This document shows, one piece after another, positions 9,634 to 19,037 of a stretch of DNA of 32,754 nucleotides (positions are counted from its first letter, which is position 1; each line of letters opens with the position of its first letter). Source of the stretch: a virus. The DNA lies in the UHGV virus genome UHGV-0097046; one strand, written 5' to 3'. A program made the translations under genes and the position numbers. The notes beneath the pieces are model-generated. The model did not search any database. It had not been told where the DNA came from and saw only the letters and a program-made list of their open reading frames with translations.

Positions 9634-11688
9634 ATGACAACAAAACAATTCCGTCGTAGTGTTGCGGTAGATACCCCTGATTTTATCGAAGAAAAAGACG
9701 AACGAATTATTGAATTGGCTTTCTCAAGCGAGGCTCCTTATACACGTTATTACATGAATCAGGACGGCGAGCAAGTCGAATTAAAAGAGATTCTCGTACA
9801 CGATGAATCAGCGGTTGATCTATCCGTTTTAAACGAGACTAACGCAAGTCTTCTGTTTAATCACAATCTGGATCTTCATATCGGCAAGATTGTTCCTGGC
9901 TCCGCTCGTATTGACGAAGACCGTGTAGGTCGTTGCCTTGTCCAATTCTCCAAAGTAGGCCAACTGGCTAATGAATGCTTTGAGAAGGTAAAAGAGGGAA
10001 CACTTTCACAAGTTAGCGTCGGTTATAACGTTCTTGATGGCAAAGCCGATTTTAACAAAGGGATCTATTATGTTACACGCTGGCAACCTTTCGAATGCAG
10101 TCTTGTAACGTGTGCCGCAGATCCATTTAATGCGGGTGTTGGACGCTCTCTAAATACAGACAACGAAATGATTGTTTTGGAGGGTGAACAAGTGGAAGAC
10201 GAAATTAAAGATACTCCGGTCGAAGAAATTAAACCGGAAGATGAAGAAAAACGTTCCGAAGAAGAGAAAGAGGAACAAGAAAATGAAGAAATTGATTCCG
10301 ATTCTGGAAATAGTGCTGACAGTGGCGAAGATGTGGAAGAACCGCAAGAAGTAACGCCAGAAGAAAAAGAAGAACGTTCCGAAGATGAACCGGAAGAAAC
10401 AGAAGAACTAAATAAAGATACAGACGAGAACGACGAAACGGAAAATACATCCGAACCAGTCGAAGAAGAAAAGATTGAAGACGAAGAAAAACCGTTTGAA
10501 CGTTCTCGCGAAGATACCGCCGAAATTCGTGCTATCGGAAAACATCTAAATATCTCCGAAGACGTGATTGAAGCTGCAATTAAAGATAGTGCCGTGACTA
10601 TTGAAAATTTTAAAGAAAAAGCACGCGCACTAAATACTACCGAATCTAAAACTTTTGTTAAAGGAAAAATTACCATGACCGATACCATTAAAACTCTGGA
10701 ATCCCGTTTCGATCTTAATAAAGCTGTACGTGCAATCGCAGAGGGTAAAGCCCTGACTGGCGCAGAAGCTGAATATTCTCAGGAAGAAGCACGTAAAGCC
10801 GCAGCGCGTGGTCGTGCGCAGCGTTCTAACTCCGTATTCATTCCGGCGTCCGCTCTGCGTGCTAGCCAGAACATGGAATCTCTGAAACCAGTAGTTGGTG
10901 AAGAAATCCGCCATGATTGCTTCGTTGATATGATCATGGAACGTTCTATTCTGGGTAAATTGGGTGTGCGTACCATTAACGCAACTGGTCCTGTTTCTCT
11001 GCCGTCTCTGACTTCCAGCAATCTGGAAAACTTCGGTTTTGTTGCAGAAGGTCAATCCGCTGGTGAAGGTACTATTAAGTTTGCAGCGCAGCCGATGACT
11101 CTCAAGACTTTTAACGGAATTGTTCCTGTAACGCGTCAGGCTGCAATCACACTGCCCAATATTGGCGCTATCGTTGGTGAGCACATGCTGAAACACAGTG
11201 CTATCGCTCTGGAAAAAGCGATTCTGTCCAATGCTGCTAACACTAACGCTCGTGATGGTCTGACTAAGATCCTGACCGACGCTGGCAAAGTTAAACAGAT
11301 TGATTGGACCTATGCCGAGTTCCTGAAACTGGTAGCTGAACTGACCGACAAAGGTTATAACGAAGCGGATCTGGCATTTGCTACCCGTGGTGTTGTTAAA
11401 GCTGAACTGGCAGCGCAACTCAAAGCAGCTAATGTTCCGGGCTTCCTGGTAGAAGGCGATAAACTGGTTAACCGTCCGATCTATGGCTCTGGTGTAGTTG
11501 CTCAGGATACCATGCTGTTTGGTGACTTTAGCTCCCTTGTTGTTGCAGACTTCGGATCGCTGGAACTGGATTGCGACGATACCACAGGTCGCGCGGCTGG
11601 CAACCTGTACTTCCGTGTATGGGCTGATCTGGATTGGGCTGTTATGGACCATAGCGCACTGACCGTAGTTCAGAAAAAAGTTGACTGA
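9634..11688 (+). CDS. Fused prohead protease (HK97 S78-type) - acidic linker/scaffold-like region - HK97-fold major capsid protein (684 aa)
   Basis: N-terminal protease motifs (LLFNHNLDLHIGK; SQVSVGY; ECSLVTCAADP); residues ~185-300 extremely E/D-rich; C-terminal 380 aa with HK97-like capsid character (...GFLVEGDKLVNRPIYG...LYFRVWADLDWAVMD). Confidence 0.75.
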   Translation: MTTKQFRRSVAVDTPDFIEEKDERIIELAFSSEAPYTRYYMNQDGEQVELKEILVHDESAVDLSVLNETNASLLFNHNLDLHIGKIVPGSARIDEDRVGRCLVQFSKVGQLANECFEKVKEGTLSQVSVGYNVLDGKADFNKGIYYVTRWQPFECSLVTCAADPFNAGVGRSLNTDNEMIVLEGEQVEDEIKDTPVEEIKPEDEEKRSEEEKEEQENEEIDSDSGNSADSGEDVEEPQEVTPEEKEERSEDEPEETEELNKDTDENDETENTSEPVEEEKIEDEEKPFERSREDTAEIRAIGKHLNISEDVIEAAIKDSAVTIENFKEKARALNTTESKTFVKGKITMTDTIKTLESRFDLNKAVRAIAEGKALTGAEAEYSQEEARKAAARGRAQRSNSVFIPASALRASQNMESLKPVVGEEIRHDCFVDMIMERSILGKLGVRTINATGPVSLPSLTSSNLENFGFVAEGQSAGEGTIKFAAQPMTLKTFNGIVPVTRQAAITLPNIGAIVGEHMLKHSAIALEKAILSNAANTNARDGLTKILTDAGKVKQIDWTYAEFLKLVAELTDKGYNEADLAFATRGVVKAELAAQLKAANVPGFLVEGDKLVNRPIYGSGVVAQDTMLFGDFSSLVVADFGSLELDCDDTTGRAAGNLYFRVWADLDWAVMDHSALTVVQKKVD

Positions 11689-11817
11689 ACTCCTGTAGAA
11701 CCTTCTGAACCTTCCCCCGATTCGGGGGAAGAAAATCTGATTCCTAAACCGGAAGAAGAATCCCAGACGGTTACGGCGAAAGCCACAGCAAAACGAGGCC
11801 GCAAGCCTAAAGAATGA
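11689..11817 (+). other. In-frame open extension after the capsid TGA stop (42 codons, TPVEPSEPSPDSGEENLIPKPEEESQTVTAKATAKRGRKPKE): candidate programmed readthrough tail
   Basis: Same frame as 9634..11688, no stop for 42 codons, acidic Pro-rich linker then basic terminal peptide shared with the major tail extension; 9-bp-stem hairpin begins ~20 nt after the TGA. Confidence 0.45.
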
Positions 11818-11822
11818 TAATT

Positions 11823-11848
11823 AGCCCTGCCTAGTGCGGGGCTTTTTT
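11823..11848 (+). terminator. Intrinsic terminator (agccctgc-ctagt-gcggggct + TTTTTT)
   Basis: 8-bp stem, T6 run, directly after the readthrough extension stop. Confidence 0.65.
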
Positions 11849-11879
11849 GTATGTAAATACTCCATAAAGGGGGTAACTA

Positions 11880-12169
11880 TGTTCAAATTATCAGAATCAC
11901 AATTATCAAGAATGTTTAAGAGTGCTCCTGTATTTTCGGTGGAAGGTGGTAAATCAATTCGTGCTTATCATGAAATTACTACTACCGACGAATCGGGGGT
12001 AATGACAGAAACCGAATTTCTATTCTGTCGTGAGGGAGACTTAAATCAGGGTGATATTGTCATTGTAGAAAACCAGCGTTTCAAAGTTCAATACGTTAAG
12101 CGCAATGGTGATAATACCACTGATTGCTTTATTACTCTGGCAGGGGGTACACATGCTCGCTACCGTTAA
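11880..12169 (+). CDS. Head-tail connector/head completion protein candidate (96 aa)
   Basis: Start at ATG preceded by AAAGGGGGTAACT RBS (track ORF begins upstream at 11834 without RBS); position immediately after capsid gene. Confidence 0.45.
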
Positions 12170-12575
12170 TAATATGCCTAGACTGAAAATCAAACGCGCC
12201 TTGCAAGATATTATCGAACAAGATTTAGGTCTGGCTTTAAACGTAGAACAAACTCAGCAAGGTTTTAGTGATGACGTGGTTTGTTGGATTACTGGCATGA
12301 ATGAGACTTACACTAGGGTCCGTGGTGGTAATGCAATGCAAGCTGAATGCGTTATCGAAATGCAATTATATTCTCAGATTCATGAAACAAAAATCCATGA
12401 GGGTATTTGCCAGATAATCCAGATTCAGCCGGATAACCCACGTTTTAAAGATTTGGGCTTCTCTATTTCAGATATCACTCCAGTAGCCTCTAATACCGAT
12501 TATGACGATGATTCTAGTGATGGGGGTATCGTTGGGACACTTAGCCTTAAATTTTCTTATCTAGCGCGTTTTTAA
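12153..12575 (+). CDS. Head-tail joining/tail completion protein candidate (about 140 aa)
   Basis: ATG at 12153 preceded by AGGGGG, overlaps previous gene by 17 nt (translational coupling); position. Confidence 0.45.
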   Translation: MLATVNNMPRLKIKRALQDIIEQDLGLALNVEQTQQGFSDDVVCWITGMNETYTRVRGGNAMQAECVIEMQLYSQIHETKIHEGICQIIQIQPDNPRFKDLGFSISDITPVASNTDYDDDSSDGGIVGTLSLKFSYLARF

Positions 12576-12584
12576 GGGGTAATA

Positions 12585-13418
12585 ATGAATATTACACAAG
12601 ATAACTTAGATATTTTCACTGGATCACATGTTGAAGTGTCGATCTCTAACCAGATAGACAATCAGGTCGACTTTTTCGATCCTAGCTTTAGTTCTATGGA
12701 GAACATCGCAGCATTCCCTACGCTAACCGAATCCACAGAGATAGAAACTCTGGAAGAGTACGATCAGGACGCTACGGGGAAACTTGCTGGTTATCGTAGA
12801 CTGGAACCGACAACACTCACATTAAACCGTGTTCTTGACGATGAACATCAAGCAATGTTGATGAAAGCGGTAGAGGATAAAACACCTTTACGCTTCCGTA
12901 TGTTCTATGTTGTGAACTCTGGCTATAGTGCTGCTAACACTGGTTACTATGTCATCTATGACGCTTATGTCACTAGTCACAAAACCCGTGGCGCAGATAA
13001 CAAAGCTGTAACACTGGAATTTAAACTTGAACCAGATGGCGGGATTTTGGCAAGGGGTATTGCTACCGAAGGCCGGATCTTACGTCAGGGTGATTTTGGT
13101 ATCGGTGCTGGTGTAAATCCTTTCAGTGGTCCTATTGATAGTGAATCTCTGACAGGAAACCGTTTCGTAACTTACAAGGGAACTGCTAGCACTAACCCTT
13201 ATGGTGCTGATACATCGTTAATTCATCTTCAAGCTAATGAGCATGGCGCATGGCAATTAACCTGTAATACTTCTGGCGCACCGCGTTTACGCGTCCGAAA
13301 TATTCAGGAAAACGGTAAATCTGAATGGATTAAAGTCTATTCTACAAACGAGAAACCGACACCTAGCGAAATTGGCGCAGTGGCTAAGACTGACCGGATC
13401 GATTTCGGCGAATACTAA
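12585..13418 (+). CDS. Structural protein (277 aa) sharing the C-terminal motif EKPTPSEIGAV with the tail fiber
   Basis: TAAGGGGTAATA RBS; motif KPTP[SA]EIGA also occurs in ORF 13499..17107. Confidence 0.5.
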   Translation: MNITQDNLDIFTGSHVEVSISNQIDNQVDFFDPSFSSMENIAAFPTLTESTEIETLEEYDQDATGKLAGYRRLEPTTLTLNRVLDDEHQAMLMKAVEDKTPLRFRMFYVVNSGYSAANTGYYVIYDAYVTSHKTRGADNKAVTLEFKLEPDGGILARGIATEGRILRQGDFGIGAGVNPFSGPIDSESLTGNRFVTYKGTASTNPYGADTSLIHLQANEHGAWQLTCNTSGAPRLRVRNIQENGKSEWIKVYSTNEKPTPSEIGAVAKTDRIDFGEY

Positions 13419-13498
13419 GGATTCTCCTACCTAAATAAAACATGACGCGGGGAGGTTAACGCCTCCCTTATTCCTGTTTTATAGTGAGGTGATTCTAG

Positions 13499-16400
13499 AT
13501 GCAATCAATCCAATTTAAACGCACACAAACGGCTGGTAAAAAACCAACGCCGGAACAATTATCACAGGGTGAATTGGCTATTAACCTTGCTGATCACGTT
13601 CTGTATACCAAAGATAAAAATAACGCAGTAGTTCAAATCTCTGTTTCTCCAGAAAAACACGCTGAACTTAACACGAAAGTAGACCAGAATAAAACTAGCA
13701 CTGACCGTGTTATTGCTTCCAACAAACAAGAGGCCGCTAATAATCTGGCTAGTGTTAAAGCTGAACTGAATCAGACTATTACCGCTAAAGACACCGCAAC
13801 CAATAAGCGCATTGATGCTACCAACACCACTGTTAGTAACTTAACCCAGACAGTTACGGCAAATAAAACCGATGCCGACACTAAGATCAATAACCTTACG
13901 GGGACCGTATCTGCGAATAAGACCGCAATTGAAAGAACCGTTGCCGCAAACAAATCTGATGCAGATAGCAAACATGCAGCTTTAACGAAAACGGTCACTG
14001 ACAATAACACCGCGATTAACAACAAGGTTAATACCACTAACACCAACGTTAGCAACTTAACTAAAACTGTTACTGCAAATAAAACCGATGCAGATAACAA
14101 AATTTCTAGCTTAACTAGCACGGTTGCAGCTAACAAAACAGCGATTGAAAAGGTCGTTTCCGACAACAAGAAAGATGCTGATACTAAAATCAGTAACCTT
14201 ACTGGCACTGTGAATAGTAACCATACCGCTATTAACAACAAGGTAGACCAGAACAAATCATCGACCGATGCCGCAATTACAGCCGCCAACAAGCGAATTG
14301 ATGGTATTGAAGGTAGTGCTAACGCAGCATATATCAAGAAGAACACAAAGACCTATCACGGCGCGTATTTGTATAGCAAGACTGGTAACTATCTGGAAGA
14401 TTCAACCGCGAGAGATCTTAATTACTTCGGTGCATTCCGTACCAATGGTCAAGATGGACTCATGGATCTAACCCTTAACGTTCCTCACTCTTCCGGTAAA
14501 GCGCATGGTCGAGGATTTACTTTCCGTTATGCGTCTGGCGGATCTCGTGTTGAAACCTATGGTTTTGATGCTCAGGGACAAAAAGCGTTTAGCTATAAAA
14601 TGTATCACGAAGGGGATAAACCGACTCCTGCTGAAATTGGCGCATATACCAAAGGCGAAATTGATAAGATGTTTATTAAAAATGTCACAATGTCTGTTCC
14701 TTCTGGTAGTGAATCCCGTGCTTATTTCAAGATTGCTACGGCTACGATCCCACAAAATGGTCGTATGGTAATGCTTCGTATCTTCGGTGGTAATGGTTAT
14801 AACGTTAACTCCTATGATCAGGTTGATTTCCTTGAAATTGTTATCCGTTCCGGTAACAATAACCCGAAAGGCGTTAGTATTGCTGCTTATCGTCGAAACT
14901 CTTTGAACGTTCATCAAGTATTTGCGGTTAATACTTCCGGTGATAACTACGACATTTACGTTAACTACGGTCGTTATACTGATAACGTTATTGTCGAATA
15001 TGGTAAGACTAGCGGTGTTTCACTGACTGTTCATGACACCCCAGCTATGACTAACGTTAAGCCGTCTACTGGTGTTACAGATGGACGTGTTATTACAATG
15101 TTCAACACCGAAAACAAGGCCGGAACGTTGATGTTTGATAATAACGGACAGGGTACATATGATATTGTCAGTTTGAATAACGATTCAGGTACTGGTAAAA
15201 AATATCTTCGTAAATTCCGTAGTAAAGCCGCAGAAACAATCTGGCATGAAACTGTTCAAGGTAACGTTTATCGTTTAGCGACTGGTACTACCGATTCTAG
15301 CGAAGTTCTACGAATCACTGGTCGCACCATGTTTACTGGTAAAGGTGTATTTGATGCCGGACAAAACGTTCTTAGATTAGAGCGTCCTAGTAATCAATCA
15401 AACTATATTGAATGGCAAGACCGCCGCAATGGTGCTAATGCTCGTCAAGGTTGGATTGGTTTTGGTAGTGCTGAAACAAATAACTTCCAATGGTATAGCG
15501 ATCAGGGGAAAAACTCATTTCAGCTAGAAGCTAACGGTCAATGCTCTATTACCACTGGTGCAACTAAAATTGTATATACAAACGGCGAGTATGTAGCTGC
15601 TAACTCAAATGCATTCCGTATGATTTACGGCAATTATGGTGCATTTTGGCGCAATGACTCCGCAAAAGTTTATCTTCTGTCAACGGCTGAAAACGATAAG
15701 TTTGGTGGTTGGAATACTTATCGACCATTCATTTATGATCTGACTTCCGGTAACGTTCAATTAGGCGGTGATGGTAACGAAGATGCATTAACGTTAGAAC
15801 GTGCAAGCCGTGCCGCTCGTTTTAGTAATGACGTTTACATTAAGAAAGGTTTTTTGACTTTCGACGCTGGGCGTTCTGGATCGCGTGATTATATTCGATT
15901 TAATCATTGGGGCGATAGCAACAACGCCCGTGATAACGTTTTATACCTCGAAGACAGCAAAGGTCGCCATTTCAGCACCGAACGTAATATGGCTACAGGT
16001 GGACTAAAGGCATATTTCTTAGGTGATCTTGAAGTTGCTGGTCAAATGAGATGGGGTAAGAATACCGGACAATCTAGCTTCAATATTCGTGCATGGGGTA
16101 ATGATACTCGTAAACAAGTATTAGAATGCGCAGATGAAAGCGGCTGGCATTTCTACACACAGCGTGCTGGCGGTCCTGGTACTACCGCAATCGAGTTTAG
16201 CGTAAACGGTAAAATTAACGCTCCCCAACTGTCTATTAGTCAGGATGCAACCATTCCTAAGTTTAATAGCGGTTTTGGTGTTGGTGTTGCTAACGGATTG
16301 GGTGGAAATTCTATTGTTTTAGGCGATAGTGATACTGGATTTAAACAAAACGGTGATGGTGTCCTTGATACCTACGCTAATAACGTTAATGTTGTTCGTC

Positions 16401-17107
16401 ACACATCTGGCGGCATTACCTTTAACCGTCGTGTTGTTGTTGCTAACAAAAATGGTTTAGGTTATTCCGATATCTCTGATGTAACTCGTGACCGTGCTCC
16501 ATTCTTGGTTAACATGGATAGTATTAAGGGGTCTGGTGCATATTTCCCTATTATCGCTGGCTATAGTAACTTAGGTGATGTTGGTTATCGTCAGTCCTTC
16601 GAGTTTGGTTGGACGGGTAGCGGTTCGACTCACGGTTGGCGTACTGGTATTATCCGTATGCGTGGCGATAACGCCAACGGGCAGCAAGCACGCTGGGAAT
16701 TTACTATGGATGGTGACTTTACCGCAGGTCGTAACGGTAGCTTTAACGATGTTTACATTCGCTCTGACTCCCGTTTGAAGATTAACAAGGAAGAATTACA
16801 GGACGGCGCATTAGAGAAAGTAAACTCCCTGAAAGTCTACACCTACGATAAAGTTAAATCTCTTTCAGATGACACAGTGATTAAACGCGAAGTAGGTATT
16901 ATTGCTCAGGATCTGGAAGAAGTGTTGCCGGAAGCAGTAGGTATTCAATCCACCGAAGATCCAGAACAACCGGAAGCAATTAAGACTATTTCTAACTCTG
17001 CTGTTAATGCCTTGATTATTAAAGCTATTCAGGAAATGGACGCCAAATATCAAGCTAAGATTGAAGCATTGACTAAAGAGATTGCCGAACTCAAAGCAAC
17101 TAAATAA
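13499..17107 (+). CDS. Tail fiber protein (1202 aa) with N-terminal anchor motif, ~21-aa tandem repeats and C-terminal intramolecular chaperone (peptidase S74-like) domain
   Basis: N-terminus KKPTPEQLSQGELAINLADHVLYTKD (fiber-anchor-like); repeats T-V-x-ANKTDAD-x-KI-x-xLT-x-TV-x-ANKTAIE; C-terminal SDSRLK...GIIAQDLEEVLPEAV...coiled coil typical of auto-cleaving chaperone domains of endosialidase and T5 L-shaped fibers. Confidence 0.85.
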   Translation: MQSIQFKRTQTAGKKPTPEQLSQGELAINLADHVLYTKDKNNAVVQISVSPEKHAELNTKVDQNKTSTDRVIASNKQEAANNLASVKAELNQTITAKDTATNKRIDATNTTVSNLTQTVTANKTDADTKINNLTGTVSANKTAIERTVAANKSDADSKHAALTKTVTDNNTAINNKVNTTNTNVSNLTKTVTANKTDADNKISSLTSTVAANKTAIEKVVSDNKKDADTKISNLTGTVNSNHTAINNKVDQNKSSTDAAITAANKRIDGIEGSANAAYIKKNTKTYHGAYLYSKTGNYLEDSTARDLNYFGAFRTNGQDGLMDLTLNVPHSSGKAHGRGFTFRYASGGSRVETYGFDAQGQKAFSYKMYHEGDKPTPAEIGAYTKGEIDKMFIKNVTMSVPSGSESRAYFKIATATIPQNGRMVMLRIFGGNGYNVNSYDQVDFLEIVIRSGNNNPKGVSIAAYRRNSLNVHQVFAVNTSGDNYDIYVNYGRYTDNVIVEYGKTSGVSLTVHDTPAMTNVKPSTGVTDGRVITMFNTENKAGTLMFDNNGQGTYDIVSLNNDSGTGKKYLRKFRSKAAETIWHETVQGNVYRLATGTTDSSEVLRITGRTMFTGKGVFDAGQNVLRLERPSNQSNYIEWQDRRNGANARQGWIGFGSAETNNFQWYSDQGKNSFQLEANGQCSITTGATKIVYTNGEYVAANSNAFRMIYGNYGAFWRNDSAKVYLLSTAENDKFGGWNTYRPFIYDLTSGNVQLGGDGNEDALTLERASRAARFSNDVYIKKGFLTFDAGRSGSRDYIRFNHWGDSNNARDNVLYLEDSKGRHFSTERNMATGGLKAYFLGDLEVAGQMRWGKNTGQSSFNIRAWGNDTRKQVLECADESGWHFYTQRAGGPGTTAIEFSVNGKINAPQLSISQDATIPKFNSGFGVGVANGLGGNSIVLGDSDTGFKQNGDGVLDTYANNVNVVRHTSGGITFNRRVVVANKNGLGYSDISDVTRDRAPFLVNMDSIKGSGAYFPIIAGYSNLGDVGYRQSFEFGWTGSGSTHGWRTGIIRMRGDNANGQQARWEFTMDGDFTAGRNGSFNDVYIRSDSRLKINKEELQDGALEKVNSLKVYTYDKVKSLSDDTVIKREVGIIAQDLEEVLPEAVGIQSTEDPEQPEAIKTISNSAVNALIIKAIQEMDAKYQAKIEALTKEIAELKATK
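13790..14260 (+). repeat. Tandem in-frame coding repeats (~63 nt units) within the tail fiber gene
   Basis: Repeated ACCGATGC(C/A)GA(C/T)A...AA(A/T)ATC...CTTAC blocks encoding the TANKTDADxKIxNLT units. Confidence 0.6.
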
Positions 17108-17163
17108 TAAAAGTCGGGGGACTAGTTCCCCCGTAATAACAATTTTAATTAAGGGGTAATTCT

Positions 17164-17634
17164 ATGTCTCAATTTAATGATATTTTTACTGGTGGTCTGG
17201 TAAGTCTGTTCTATCACGCTGATACCACTAACACCGCTCTCGATCACTCCGGTTACGAAGAAATTAAAGAGTGTGCTGGTTTTCCTGAAACTGGTATCGA
17301 GCGCGGTACTGTAGAAGTTAAATCCTTCTCTTCTCAGTATAACCGTAAGCTGGTAGGGAAACTGAACGTTCCTGATCTGACTCTGACCGTTAACTACATC
17401 CCAGGCGATGCGGTGCACGAGAAGCTCATTAAAGCTGCCGAAGACGGTACTCGAATTCAGATTAAGATTGAATACTATGTTGATGCAGCAAAACAGACTG
17501 GTATTCGCACCGCTTTCAACGGCTTTATTTCTAAAGTTGCTATGAACGGTGGCGATGAAGAAGTTGTAACCAAAGAGTTTACCTTCGCGGTGGACGGAAA
17601 GCCGATCAAACAGGAAATCTTCACTGCCGGATGA
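17164..17634 (+). CDS. Major tail tube protein, lambda gpV N-domain-like (156 aa)
   Basis: Similarity to the lambda gpV tube domain (EDGTRIQIKIEY / FNGFISKVA / EVVTKEFTFAVDGKP versus gpV EGDTRAYKIRF / FRGWVSSIG / EVITRTVKVTNVGRP); AAGGGGTAATTCT RBS; position before G/T chaperones. Confidence 0.75.
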   Translation: MSQFNDIFTGGLVSLFYHADTTNTALDHSGYEEIKECAGFPETGIERGTVEVKSFSSQYNRKLVGKLNVPDLTLTVNYIPGDAVHEKLIKAAEDGTRIQIKIEYYVDAAKQTGIRTAFNGFISKVAMNGGDEEVVTKEFTFAVDGKPIKQEIFTAG

Positions 17635-17760
17635 ACTAACGAAGAACTTCCTTTAATAGAACCGGAACCACTACCGGAACATGAAGCGGTGGTGATTCCA
17701 GAAGTAGAAGAAGTTACGGCGAAAGCCACAGCAAAACGAGGCCGCAAGGCTAAGAATTAA
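17635..17760 (+). other. In-frame open extension after the major tail TGA stop (41 codons, TNEELPLIEPEPLPEHEAVVIPEVEEVTAKATAKRGRKAKN): candidate programmed readthrough tail
   Basis: Same frame as 17164..17634; last 36 nt encoding VTAKATAKRGRK identical to 11770-11805; followed by the same terminator design. Confidence 0.45.
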
Positions 17761-17765
17761 TTTTA

Positions 17766-17793
17766 AGCCCTGCCTTAATGGTGGGGCTTTTTT
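17766..17793 (+). terminator. Intrinsic terminator (gccctgcc-ttaat-ggtggggc + TTTTTT)
   Basis: About 9-bp stem with G-U pairs, T-run. Confidence 0.6.
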
Positions 17794-17808
17794 ATTGGAG
17801 TAATCAAA

Positions 17809-18315
17809 ATGGCAAATGTCGTTAATAAGCCCGGCTGGGTCGGATCATCTGCTGTATCGGTGACGGGTAAGCGATGGATGAAAGAAGCATTAACAGCTTT
17901 AAAAGTTCCGGCTCCGCGTAATATGTCGGCAATGGCTGGTCGTGGTATGGATACGGTTGTAGCTACTGCATCGTGGTCTACTTCATTGGGTAATAACTGG
18001 GGTGTAACTGCTTCAAACTATCCTGTTTCCGGTATGCAAAGCAAAGGATCTATGGAGAACCCCGAAAACGTGGGCGTAGGCCGTCTAATTGGCGTTATCG
18101 TTGGTCAATTCAATGGCGGTACTCCTACTATGGCTGTATATCTCCAGAACGGTAGAGCGGGGAATATAACCGTTAATTTGGGTGGTGCTGCTGTCACTGT
18201 TCCTTATAACAGTATGCAAAGTGGTTTTCATTACTACTGGTTAAGCAATCCTCCGGCAGCTTTCCTCAATAACATTAAGAAGACTGGCACTAAGCAGACT
18301 TTGAAAATCTCTTAA
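17809..18315 (+). CDS. Hypothetical tail-region protein (168 aa), Gly/Ser/Thr-rich, possibly beta-sandwich
   Basis: ORF between major tail gene and chaperone genes; no family recognised. Confidence 0.5.
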   Translation: MANVVNKPGWVGSSAVSVTGKRWMKEALTALKVPAPRNMSAMAGRGMDTVVATASWSTSLGNNWGVTASNYPVSGMQSKGSMENPENVGVGRLIGVIVGQFNGGTPTMAVYLQNGRAGNITVNLGGAAVTVPYNSMQSGFHYYWLSNPPAAFLNNIKKTGTKQTLKIS

Positions 18316-18357: not shown

Positions 18358-18666
18358 ATGAATATTAATGAAATGCTGAAAGCTCTTTCTCCGAAACGCG
18401 AATCTCTGACCATCGGTGGATTCACTTTCTATGCTCGCCCTATGTCAGTAAAAGAATTTAACGAACATGTTTTCAATACCGATAAAGATGACCGTGATGA
18501 ACGTTCTATTCTTCGTTGTATTGAAGATGAAGACGGTAAACCAGTATTTGAATCTATGGAACAAGTTAAGGCACTGTATACTAACGTCCGCAGTGAATTA
18601 ATCGGTTTGGTTGCTCAAGCGTCATTGATGCAAGATCCGACAGTAATTGAAAACGAGGTAAAGTAA
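18358..18666 (+). CDS. Tail assembly chaperone, gpG-like (102 aa)
   Basis: Position immediately upstream of tape measure; GAGGAAACAAGA RBS; followed by a -1-frame ORF lacking its own RBS. Confidence 0.55.
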   Translation: MNINEMLKALSPKRESLTIGGFTFYARPMSVKEFNEHVFNTDKDDRDERSILRCIEDEDGKPVFESMEQVKALYTNVRSELIGLVAQASLMQDPTVIENEVK

Positions 18667-18695
18667 ACCCGCTTCTGAATTTCTATTTTCGGCAA

Positions 18696-19037
18696 ATGAT
18701 GCGATCGGGGCTTAGTAAAGATGAAATGGATAATATGCCAATCACTCTGTTTTGGAAATTATACATTTTCGACACCTACTTAGAACCACAAAGCCCCGCG
18801 TTTCATGATATGCAGAATGCGATGTTGCAATATTCCATGTATATGACGTCGCAAGGAATGACACGCGAAACTGCACGCAAACTCAAGCCTAGCCAATTCC
18901 AATTAATTAGAGAAGAAAAACTCTTTAAAACTAAAGAAGAACTGGAAGAAATTGCACGCAAGAAAGAAGAAGAACGTAAAGCGGCAATGCTGAACATGTT
19001 TGATCCATCTTTGCTTGAGAAACTCAGAAGCGGTTAA
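18696..19037 (+). CDS. gpT-like segment, probably expressed mainly as G-T fusion via -1 frameshift
   Basis: In -1 frame relative to 18358..18666; frame open from 18651; no Shine-Dalgarno before ATG 18696. Confidence 0.45.
   Translation: MMRSGLSKDEMDNMPITLFWKLYIFDTYLEPQSPAFHDMQNAMLQYSMYMTSQGMTRETARKLKPSQFQLIREEKLFKTKEELEEIARKKEEERKAAMLNMFDPSLLEKLRSG

Follow-up and report, generated by a model that had tools for sequence, protein, structure and literature searches.

A duplicated stop-codon extension cassette behind the major capsid and tail tube genes of an Escherichia coli prophage suggests low-level UGA readthrough

The UHGV virus genome UHGV-0097046 was analyzed as one stretch of 32,754 nucleotides, read 5′ to 3′ and referred to below as the window. 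It is an Escherichia coli prophage, and positions 11300 to 11900 are 100% identical in E. coli 39EVA (NZ_CP138416) and HCP5S3_I4 (NZ_CM149869). Here, we describe a short element that begins with the stop codon of the major capsid gene, a TGA followed by A, and continues through an in-frame open extension to a terminator. A related copy of this element, which we call the cassette, lies behind the tail tube gene of the same prophage. All features described below are on the plus strand.

The capsid gene (9634..11685, 684 codons) encodes a prohead protease fused through an acidic, scaffold-like segment to an HK97-type major capsid protein, an assignment based on Pfam, PHROG, and structure matches. 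Within the 684-amino-acid product of the open reading frame (ORF; 9634-11688, stop codon included), the middle, scaffold-like segment is very acidic, and Pfam placed Peptidase_S78 at residues 59 to 162 and Phage_capsid (PF05065) at residues 427 to 680. The Phage_capsid match scored 53 bits against a curated cut-off of 24.2, which assigns the protein to the HK97 fold. The PHROG match was to 617/4523, “major head (and protease) protein,” and the nearest solved structure was 8gta_A, “Major capsid protein” (E=3e-12).

The 3′ end of this gene reads GTT-GAC-TGA-ACT, with the TGA at 11686-11688 and the proposed leaky tetranucleotide, TGA plus the +4 base A, at 11686..11689. As the sequence-only reading of this DNA had stated, the capsid frame stays open for 42 codons past this stop. 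These are exactly 42 sense codons, at 11689-11814, and they specify TPVEPSEPSPDSGEENLIPKPEEESQTVTAKATAKRGRKPKE. The translation also bears out the description of an acidic, proline-rich linker that gives way to a Lys/Arg-rich end: a spacer of 27 codons, TPVEPSEPSPDSGEENLIPKPEEESQT (11689..11769), is followed by a basic tip of 15 codons with a net charge of +5, VTAKATAKRGRKPKE (11770..11814). A tandem stop, TGA-TAA, closes the extension at 11815..11820. The terminator reported behind it lies at 11823..11849 and consists of an intrinsic terminator-like stem-loop of 8 pairs, 6 of them G-C, and a T-run, TTTTTGTATG; the stem-loop proper spans 11823-11843, the T-run lies beyond it, and the structure is conserved across all relatives. 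Both other frames are closed at the capsid stop, one by TAG at 11696-11698 and the other by TGA at 11682-11684 and 11706-11708, and each contains two or three stops over the extension region.

A 32-nt stretch of the tip-coding sequence (11776-11807) is repeated with one mismatch at 17719-17750, just downstream of the tail tube (major tail) protein gene (17164..17631, 156 codons). The tube ORF (17164-17634) matched the Pfam family Phage_TTP_11 (PF16460), “lambda-like tail tube,” with 29.0 bits, a marginal pass over the cut-off of 28.4, and matched PHROG 158, “major tail protein,” with E=7e-22 while covering only profile positions 15 to 158 of 376. In the Prokaryotic Genome Annotation Pipeline (PGAP), the corresponding gene, which is 95% identical to that of the window, is labeled “phage tail tube protein.” The tube gene ends in GCC-GGA-TGA-ACT, placing a second proposed leaky stop, again TGA plus the +4 base A, at 17632..17635. 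Behind it, an in-frame extension of 41 open codons (17635..17757; complete translation, TNEELPLIEPEPLPEHEAVVIPEVEEVTAKATAKRGRKAKN) comprises the spacer TNEELPLIEPEPLPEHEAVVIPEVEE (17635-17712) and the basic tip VTAKATAKRGRKAKN (17713-17757). The extension is closed by TAA at 17758..17760 and followed at 17765..17795 by an intrinsic terminator-like stem-loop with a T-run, which has 10 pairs, 6 of them G-C, and is related in sequence to the terminator at 11823; its arms, AAGCCCTGCC...GGGGCTT, match the arms of that terminator. The capsid and tube extensions are thus homologous to each other and share one layout: TGA-A, an acidic, proline-containing spacer, a VTAKATAKRGRK-type tip, a strong stop, and a terminator. 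Capsid and tail tube are the two most abundant virion genes, and both carry this identical stop design.

Within the tip-coding core of both copies lies a small hairpin, GGC-GAAA-GCC, whose loop is of the GNRA type (11773-11790 and 17716-17733). The core itself is nearly invariant in nucleotide sequence across all capsid and tube copies, silent positions included. Almost invariant in all relatives as well are the segments that run from each terminator to the next start (11844-11881 and 17790-17812), for example TTTTTTGTATGTAAATACTCCATAAAGGGGGTAACTATG.

Matches to this region were found in 54 of 5,426 complete E. coli genomes (~1%), most of which align from window position 11682, 11695, or 11770 onward. 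A mosaic boundary lies at the capsid stop relative to the E. coli prophages H18 to H52, many of which have capsid genes with no detectable DNA similarity to that of the window. The other capsid allele has ~40% protein identity, whereas DNA identity is 85 to 91% across the extension, terminator, and beginning of the gene that follows. We sampled viral contigs with a 24-nt pattern from the nearly invariant segment downstream of the cassette, so that the sampling was blind to the extension frame, and 37 viral contigs matched. In all 45 viral-contig loci, the capsid stop was TGA followed by A, the last residue before it was D or E, the extension was open for 28, 33, 42, 43, 44, or 45 codons, and its end was a tandem stop, TAATAA or TGATAA. 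Tube loci were sampled independently of the extension, using tube-protein peptides; 24 of 24 close tube relatives had TGA-A and an open extension of 36, 39, or 41 codons.

A metagenome scan with a conserved 20-mer returned 20 genuine matches, 13 capsid and 7 tube loci. Every one of them had TGA-A and an open frame and lay behind either capsid type or the tube gene; a cassette behind any third gene was not found among these 20 matches. With the metagenome loci included, the tube extension variants have 36, 39, 40, or 41 codons, all open and in frame. The sequence-only reading had proposed a comparison of homologous phages as a check, and in the 45 capsid loci plus the 13 metagenome capsid loci the downstream frame was kept, free of stops and frameshifts. 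The relation between capsid frame and extension frame was preserved although the two types of capsid gene are only ~40% identical, and it was also retained in the recombinants L086 and L099, in which capsid type and extension type are newly combined. None of the prophages examined carried more than two copies of the cassette. A purely DNA-level terminator module, an explanation raised earlier for the conservation at 11770-11805, fits poorly with the duplicate of that segment behind the tube gene, which again lies in frame behind TGA-A.

Relatives that lack the cassette end differently. Capsid relatives without it (DCP80, Atlantibacter, Yersinia pekkanenii, and Phytobacter; 28 to 34% identity) end in TAA, either TAA-T or TAA-A, and a scan of genome contigs found only three distant capsid relatives (those of Atlantibacter, Y. 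pekkanenii, and Phytobacter), all ending in TAA-T without an extension and serving as negative controls. Tube relatives without the cassette, L011 (59% identity) and L074 (39% identity), likewise end in TAA-T. No DNA match, near or distant, was found in the phage collection, where no sequenced isolate carries the module; the best protein-level phage relative is DCP80, at 33% identity, from which the cassette is absent. A sense codon in place of the TGA was not found at any locus, and the capsid extension was unmatched among 5.8 billion predicted proteins. Only one protein, the apparent tube fusion P0001, contained the tube extension; it was rejected, as it arises only from a gene caller reading that contig's TGA as Trp.

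The choice of TGA also sets the two genes apart within the prophage. TAA ends 27 of the 29 plausible window genes; capsid and tube are the sole exceptions, with TGA, and TAG is not used. Over the related loci, the stop codons total 171 TAA, 49 TGA, and 2 TAG, and the two cassette sites account for most of the TGA. Stops of the type TGA-A are almost confined to these sites throughout the family, and the remaining TGA stops are mostly TGA-T. A TGA-A stop is therefore a conserved property of the cassette genes (45/45 viral-contig capsid loci, 24/24 close tube relatives, and 20 metagenome loci), unlike the other 27 genes of the window, which end in TAA. A paralogue of the tube protein (277 amino acids, 12585-13418; 29% identity by tblastn) matches PHROG 158 over residues 10 to 154 and carries additional sequence at its C terminus. 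Its gene stops with TAA-G in the window and with TGA-T in some relatives, and since no extension follows, it serves as an internal control.

In several respects, the extensions vary as would be expected of a translated frame. All lengths are multiples of 3 (84, 99, 126, 129, 132, and 135 nt behind the capsid gene; 108, 117, 120, and 123 nt behind the tube gene), and these variants require at least 8 indel events, an outcome with a chance probability of ~1.5e-4 if there were no constraint on the frame. At least 98 substitutions created no in-frame stop, against ~4.2 expected (P ~0.014), whereas the shifted frames contain 1 to 7 stops each across the extension versions. We also scored the extensions with a codon-usage log-likelihood model trained on the other genes of the window. 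Scores were +10 to +37 bits in the frame of the upstream gene and negative or near zero in the shifted frames; chunks of real genes of equal length had a median score of +25 bits. We regard the capsid extension as nonrandom because its stop and frame are kept in relatives, its length changes only by multiples of 3, the cassette is present twice, and TGA is unique to the two genes in the window.

What is kept at the protein level is mainly composition. The capsid spacer variants have 11, 18, or 27 codons, a net charge of −4 to −9, and 41 to 56% P/E/D, and the capsid tips (KRGRKPKE, KKQRKTKE, KKVGRPPKAK, KKERKTKAK, and KKAGRPPKAKE) have a net charge of +5 to +7 throughout. The tube spacers carry −6 to −9 and the tube tips +5 to +6. 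This pattern of acidic spacer and basic tip persists through five tip sequences, with KRSRKAKD among the tips compared. The earlier emphasis on a basic terminal peptide thus stood as a charge pattern and did not stand as a sequence, given weak purifying selection per residue. Judged from its sequence variation, the extension peptide seems to resemble a disordered region in which frame, composition, and charge, and not an exact sequence, are under selection.

A hairpin downstream of the capsid stop had been suggested to promote recoding. The 9-bp hairpin exists, CTTCCCCCG-ATT-CGGGGGAAG, in the spacer-coding region, but it lies at 11711..11731 (arms 11711-11719 and 11723-11731), 22 nt after the stop, and not at 11708-11728 and ~20 nt as first given. 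All long capsid variants retain it, most of them with the loop-closing C-G pair changed to U.G, and its codons are unusually invariant, with one change against ~6 expected from the rest of the spacer (P ~0.02). Neither the 28-codon capsid variant nor the tube copy has the hairpin. Each version folds downstream of the stop better than shuffled sequences do, with z-scores of −2.9 for the long capsid version, whose fold includes the 9-bp hairpin, −4.3 for the short capsid version, −2.9 for the tube version of the window, and −1.7 for the L065 type of tube version. These stable folds begin 11 to 22 nt past the stop and differ between versions: the short capsid version forms a hairpin of 11 bp and a GAAA loop 11 nt downstream of its stop and has, in variant L032, one compensatory pair (U-A to C-G), and the tube helix has uncompensated changes. 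No RNA structure is common to the long capsid, short capsid, and tube versions, and an Rfam scan of 11500-18000 at a permissive threshold gave no match. A spacer of 22 nt would be too long for the hairpin to act on a ribosome decoding the stop. Given this distance, its absence from the short capsid and tube versions, and the lack of a shared structure, the hairpin is unlikely to be a general promoter of recoding; a role for it in readthrough is unproven and not required.

How, then, could the extensions be translated? The earlier reading favored readthrough over frameshifting, and we agree: at both sites, the 0 frame carries the extension (42 and 41 open codons), stops close the other frames, and there is no consistent ATG, GTG, or TTG start. 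We considered a frameshift at the A6 run, CAG-AAA-AAA-GTT, and rejected it, as the run lies out of slippery register, TGA would follow within two codons of a −1 shift, and the other capsid type lacks the run; nor does the extension lie in a −1 or +1 frame behind a slippery site. No internal start codon is conserved in the extensions, and the capsid extension of the window contains no ATG, GTG, or TTG at all. Neither the window nor the corresponding 39EVA prophage with its flanks (L046) contains a tRNA gene, suppressors included, so decoding must rely on the host. Taken together, the 0 frame and the absence of a start codon, a phage tRNA, and a sense-codon variant make readthrough by the host the simplest route.

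In E. coli, UGA with A at the +4 position is especially open to misreading by tRNA-Trp, UGA being the leakiest stop and UAA-U the tightest (PMC5289835). Readthrough of UGA reflects competition between Trp-tRNA-Trp and release factor 2 (RF2) with RF3; it is seen at native genes and varies with cyclic AMP (cAMP), with temperature, and between single cells (PMC10570021). The phage reserves the leakiest signal for just two genes and ends all others with the tightest class. We consider it likely, on the sequence evidence, that host tRNA-Trp reads through UGA-A to yield minor extended isoforms of the capsid and tube proteins. Most ribosomes would terminate at UGA-A, the context that most favors E. 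coli tRNA-Trp over RF2, and release the normal capsid and tube proteins. A small fraction of ribosomes would insert an amino acid, expected to be Trp, translate 42 (capsid) or 41 (tube) further codons, and end at a strong stop, TGA-TAA or TAA, directly before the intrinsic terminator. The products would be minor isoforms with a disordered, acidic, proline-rich spacer and a Lys/Arg-rich tip. Their stop-spanning peptides would correspond to VDWTPVEPSEPSPDSGEENLIPKPEEESQTVTAK and QEIFTAGWTNEELPLIEPEPLPEHEAVVIPEVEEVTAK; with Trp inserted, these would read VD[W]TPVEPSEPSPDSGEENLIPKPEEESQTVTAK and QEIFTAG[W]TNEELPLIEPEPLPEHEAVVIPEVEEVTAK. The anatomy of the cassette, its duplication, and the conservation of its frame are direct observations; the occurrence of readthrough, its efficiency, and the inserted amino acid are inferred, as are the exposure of the tip on the virion and its function.

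Several observations weigh against this interpretation. The carriers are ~85 to 100% identical at the DNA level in the cassette segment, so that phylogenetic depth is shallow and the loci are not independent. A 42-codon open run is by itself not rare within the window: at least 41 open codons follow the stop in 5 of the 27 other genes, in 3 of them through a next gene that shares the frame. Substitutions are spread nearly evenly over the three codon positions (18/23/21 in capsid extensions, 12/9/15 in tube extensions), and the synonymous share of codon changes in the extension is only ~32%, indicating weak selection at the level of residues. The core GTTACGGCGAAAGCCACAGC is almost unchanged even at synonymous sites, an invariance that may reflect gene conversion between copies or an RNA- or DNA-level constraint rather than peptide function. 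The sole cis feature present in all versions is UGA-A-(C/A)-U, with no shared stimulator beyond it. Finally, readthrough of UGA-A in wild E. coli may be well under 1%, which would leave less than one extended subunit per virion. K-12 and wild isolates differ at RF2 residue 246.

Some of these points are also what a noncoding explanation would predict. The cassette could be an untranslated 3′ trailer with a terminator, duplicated behind two highly expressed genes for mRNA stability or termination, in which case the open frame would be an accident of shared ancestry and purine-rich sequence. The duplicated part does take in the terminator, GTTACGGCGAAAGCCACAGC is invariant even at synonymous sites, codon-position bias is weak, the conserved core holds the GGC-GAAA-GCC hairpin, and a lone 42-codon open run is not rare. 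We nevertheless consider this explanation unlikely: it leaves at least 8 indels in multiples of 3 unexplained, the nonduplicated parts of the spacers are also open and have gene-like codon usage in exactly the upstream frame, and TGA-A occurs only at both cassette genes, with 27 others ending in TAA and the relatives without the cassette ending in TAA as well. Alternatively, readthrough may be real and the peptide irrelevant, if the rare ribosome at the tandem stop, 2 to 4 nt ahead of the terminator stem, covers the 5′ arm of that stem or shields the mRNA, so that leakiness tunes downstream transcription. The extension ORFs always end 2 to 5 nt before the terminator stem, and such a role needs an open frame and not residue conservation, which fits the weak selection on residues. 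However, genes often end beside terminators anyway, readthrough of a few percent would change termination on only a few percent of transcripts, and the charge pattern, which this explanation does not require, is kept over five unrelated tips and several spacer versions. This makes it, to our minds, distinctly improbable.

Two further explanations concern how the extension might be decoded. It could be a separate small gene, with a noncanonical start of its own or with reinitiation after the TGA, and in DCP80 a small ORF whose product has a basic end (MERAISPMSLGAEALDAAPVKKSKSASG) does begin in a TAATG overlap directly behind the capsid gene. Against this, the TTG and GTG codons of other variants are at differing places, and deletions of 27 nt and 48 nt remove candidate sites. 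An independent gene could lie in any frame relative to the two different genes upstream, the extension is never predicted by gene callers, and it has no match among the 5.8 billion proteins, so that we give this explanation very little credence. Least probable of all is the decoding of UGA as selenocysteine, with the downstream hairpin resembling a selenocysteine insertion sequence (SECIS). A stable stem-loop does follow the UGA in each version, starting at 11 to 22 nt with z-scores of −1.7 to −4.3, but the long capsid, short capsid, and tube versions share no hairpin sequence, loop, or spacing. E. coli SelB needs a G/U-containing loop with a bulged U; the loops here are ATT and GAAA, the changes in the tube helix are uncompensated, and Rfam gave no match.

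Readthrough of a leaky UGA by tRNA-Trp has a close counterpart in the Allolevivirus Qbeta, where a leaky UGA likewise ends the coat gene and low-frequency Trp insertion by host tRNA yields A1, a minor coat isoform of the virion that is extended at its C terminus. The Qbeta coat stop is likewise followed by A. Qbeta is, however, a single-stranded RNA phage with an unrelated coat fold, a single readthrough site, and a folded extension of ~196 amino acids that is needed for infectivity, whereas the phage described here is a tailed double-stranded DNA prophage with an HK97-fold capsid and predicted disordered tails of 28 to 45 amino acids at two sites. The A1 extension opens with a proline-rich, polyproline II (PPII) linker (PMC6526423). 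The Listeria phages PSA, A118, and A500 resemble our case in having recoded extensions on both the capsid and the major tail protein (PMC5009743). They use +1 or −1 frameshifting at slippery sites, and the extension lies in another frame; here, by contrast, the sequence behind the stop continues in the 0 frame, the other frames are closed, and the capsid and tube extensions are mutually homologous. Longer minor isoforms of HK97-type capsid proteins are also made as gp10A-gp10B by T7/T3 and as gp5A-gp5B by Lactobacillus phage A2, and are incorporated in the shell there (PMC5009743). In these phages, the isoforms arise by −1 frameshifting in the capsid gene only, and the T3 and A2 extensions are immunoglobulin (Ig)-like domains. 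The T7 10B extension is surface-exposed and dispensable and is the basis of T7 display.

For the tube, the nearest parallels are SPP1 gp17.1/gp17.1* and the Ig-like domain of lambda gpV, both optional C-terminal add-ons to a lambda-like tail tube protein that sit outside the tube. The lambda gpV add-on is constitutive, that of SPP1 is made by +1 frameshifting, and both are folded, whereas here a short, predicted disordered peptide stands behind a leaky stop. Relatives in PHROG 158 carry ~220 extra C-terminal positions beyond the match of the window's tube protein. The alphavirus opal codon and gag-pol of murine leukemia virus (MuLV) also combine a leaky stop with RNA structure ~8 to 20 nt downstream (PMC5009743). 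They differ from the present case, in which no structure is common to the three versions. To our knowledge, no 3′ stem-loop stimulator of readthrough is known for bacterial ribosomes. Some tip variants (KKVGRPPKAK and KKAGRPPKAKE) are reminiscent of AT-hooks, which are short basic peptides with a G-R-P core flanked by K/R. We rejected an AT-hook for the tips of the window, KRGRKPKE and KRGRKAKN, which lack the R-G-R-P core, as do KKQRKTKE and KKERKTKAK; no Pfam match was found at E<=0.1. The documented minor longer capsid and tail forms of tailed phages all use ribosomal frameshifting in the review consulted (PMC5009743). In the open-access literature, we found no prior report of stop-codon readthrough in tailed-phage structural genes, an absence that is not proof.

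Other features of the prophage and its relatives were also recorded. The portal of the prophage is of the lambda-portal type. A tail fiber gene of 1202 amino acids (13499-17107) lies between the head-completion genes and the tube gene, an order unusual for a siphophage, and directly after the tube terminator is a Gp38-like tail fiber adhesin (Pfam Gp38_N, PHROG 1121) at 17809-18315. The tail assembly chaperone pair at 18358-19037 looks like a classic G/GT −1 frameshift: a chaperone-like ORF at 18358-18666 ends in GTA-AAG-TAA, the ORF at 18696-19037 has a weak Pfam match to Phage_tail_T, and its frame, −1 relative to the first ORF, is free of stops from 18651 onward. Slippage would most likely occur on A-AAG (18660-18663) while the A site holds the TAA stop; if this frameshift is true, one phage would use both frameshifting and readthrough. 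In E. coli 39EVA, the prophage (L046, NZ_CP138416.1 1216204-1249594) neighbors both the prp operon and a truncated gene for cytosine permease and has an IS1A insertion near its right end, so that this copy may not be fully intact. DCP80 (L005, PQ671644.1), a 141-kb record of an Escherichia phage classified as Straboviridae (T4-like), contains a homologous module of portal, fused protease-capsid, and tail genes at its left end, at 3.7 to 10.8 kb, with 33% identity, which suggests either an unusually mosaic genome or a chimera created in assembly. The stop of the DCP80 capsid gene is TAA, and behind it lies a distinct ORF of 28 codons that ends in basic residues.

The number of extended subunits that readthrough would deliver can be estimated. 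A genome of ~35 to 38 kb implies a T=7 head with ~415 capsid subunits, and a tape measure of 809 amino acids implies ~180 tube subunits; at a readthrough of 0.1 to 5%, a head would contain between less than one and ~20 extended subunits, and a tail would contain fewer. C-terminal add-ons are external in T7 10B and phi29 gp8, both HK97-fold capsid proteins, and in gpV and SPP1 gp17.1*, both lambda-like tube proteins; the location of the capsid C terminus is not stated in the R4C structure paper. By analogy with these systems, we infer that the cationic tips are probably displayed sparsely on the outside of head and tail, where our best guess for their role is weak electrostatic adhesion (to lipopolysaccharide, capsule, mucus, or DNA) or stabilization of the particle. 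As no variant with a sense codon was found, selection seems to act against virions in which every subunit is extended. A broader model, which we put forward only tentatively and hold to be somewhat less probable than its alternatives taken together, is that of a portable leaky-stop display cassette. Made up of UGA-A, an acidic, polyproline-like spacer, a cationic tip, a strong stop, and a terminator, it would move between capsid and tube genes and between prophages by gene conversion or recombination and would give E. coli siphophage virions sparse, tethered cationic tips on head and tail, at a density tracking tRNA-Trp/RF2 physiology (cAMP, temperature, and growth state).

If true, the cassette would provide the first case of programmed readthrough of a stop codon among the structural genes of tailed double-stranded DNA phages, and stop-codon readthrough would join the recoding repertoire of these phages, the textbook phage case, Qbeta A1, being that of an RNA phage. 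It would also mean that gene callers systematically overlook such extensions, as with the capsid extension, which is absent from 5.8 billion proteins. For the phage itself, the cassette would constitute a natural low-copy display scaffold on head and tail, and the composition of the virion surface would be tied to the translational fidelity of the host (PMC10570021).

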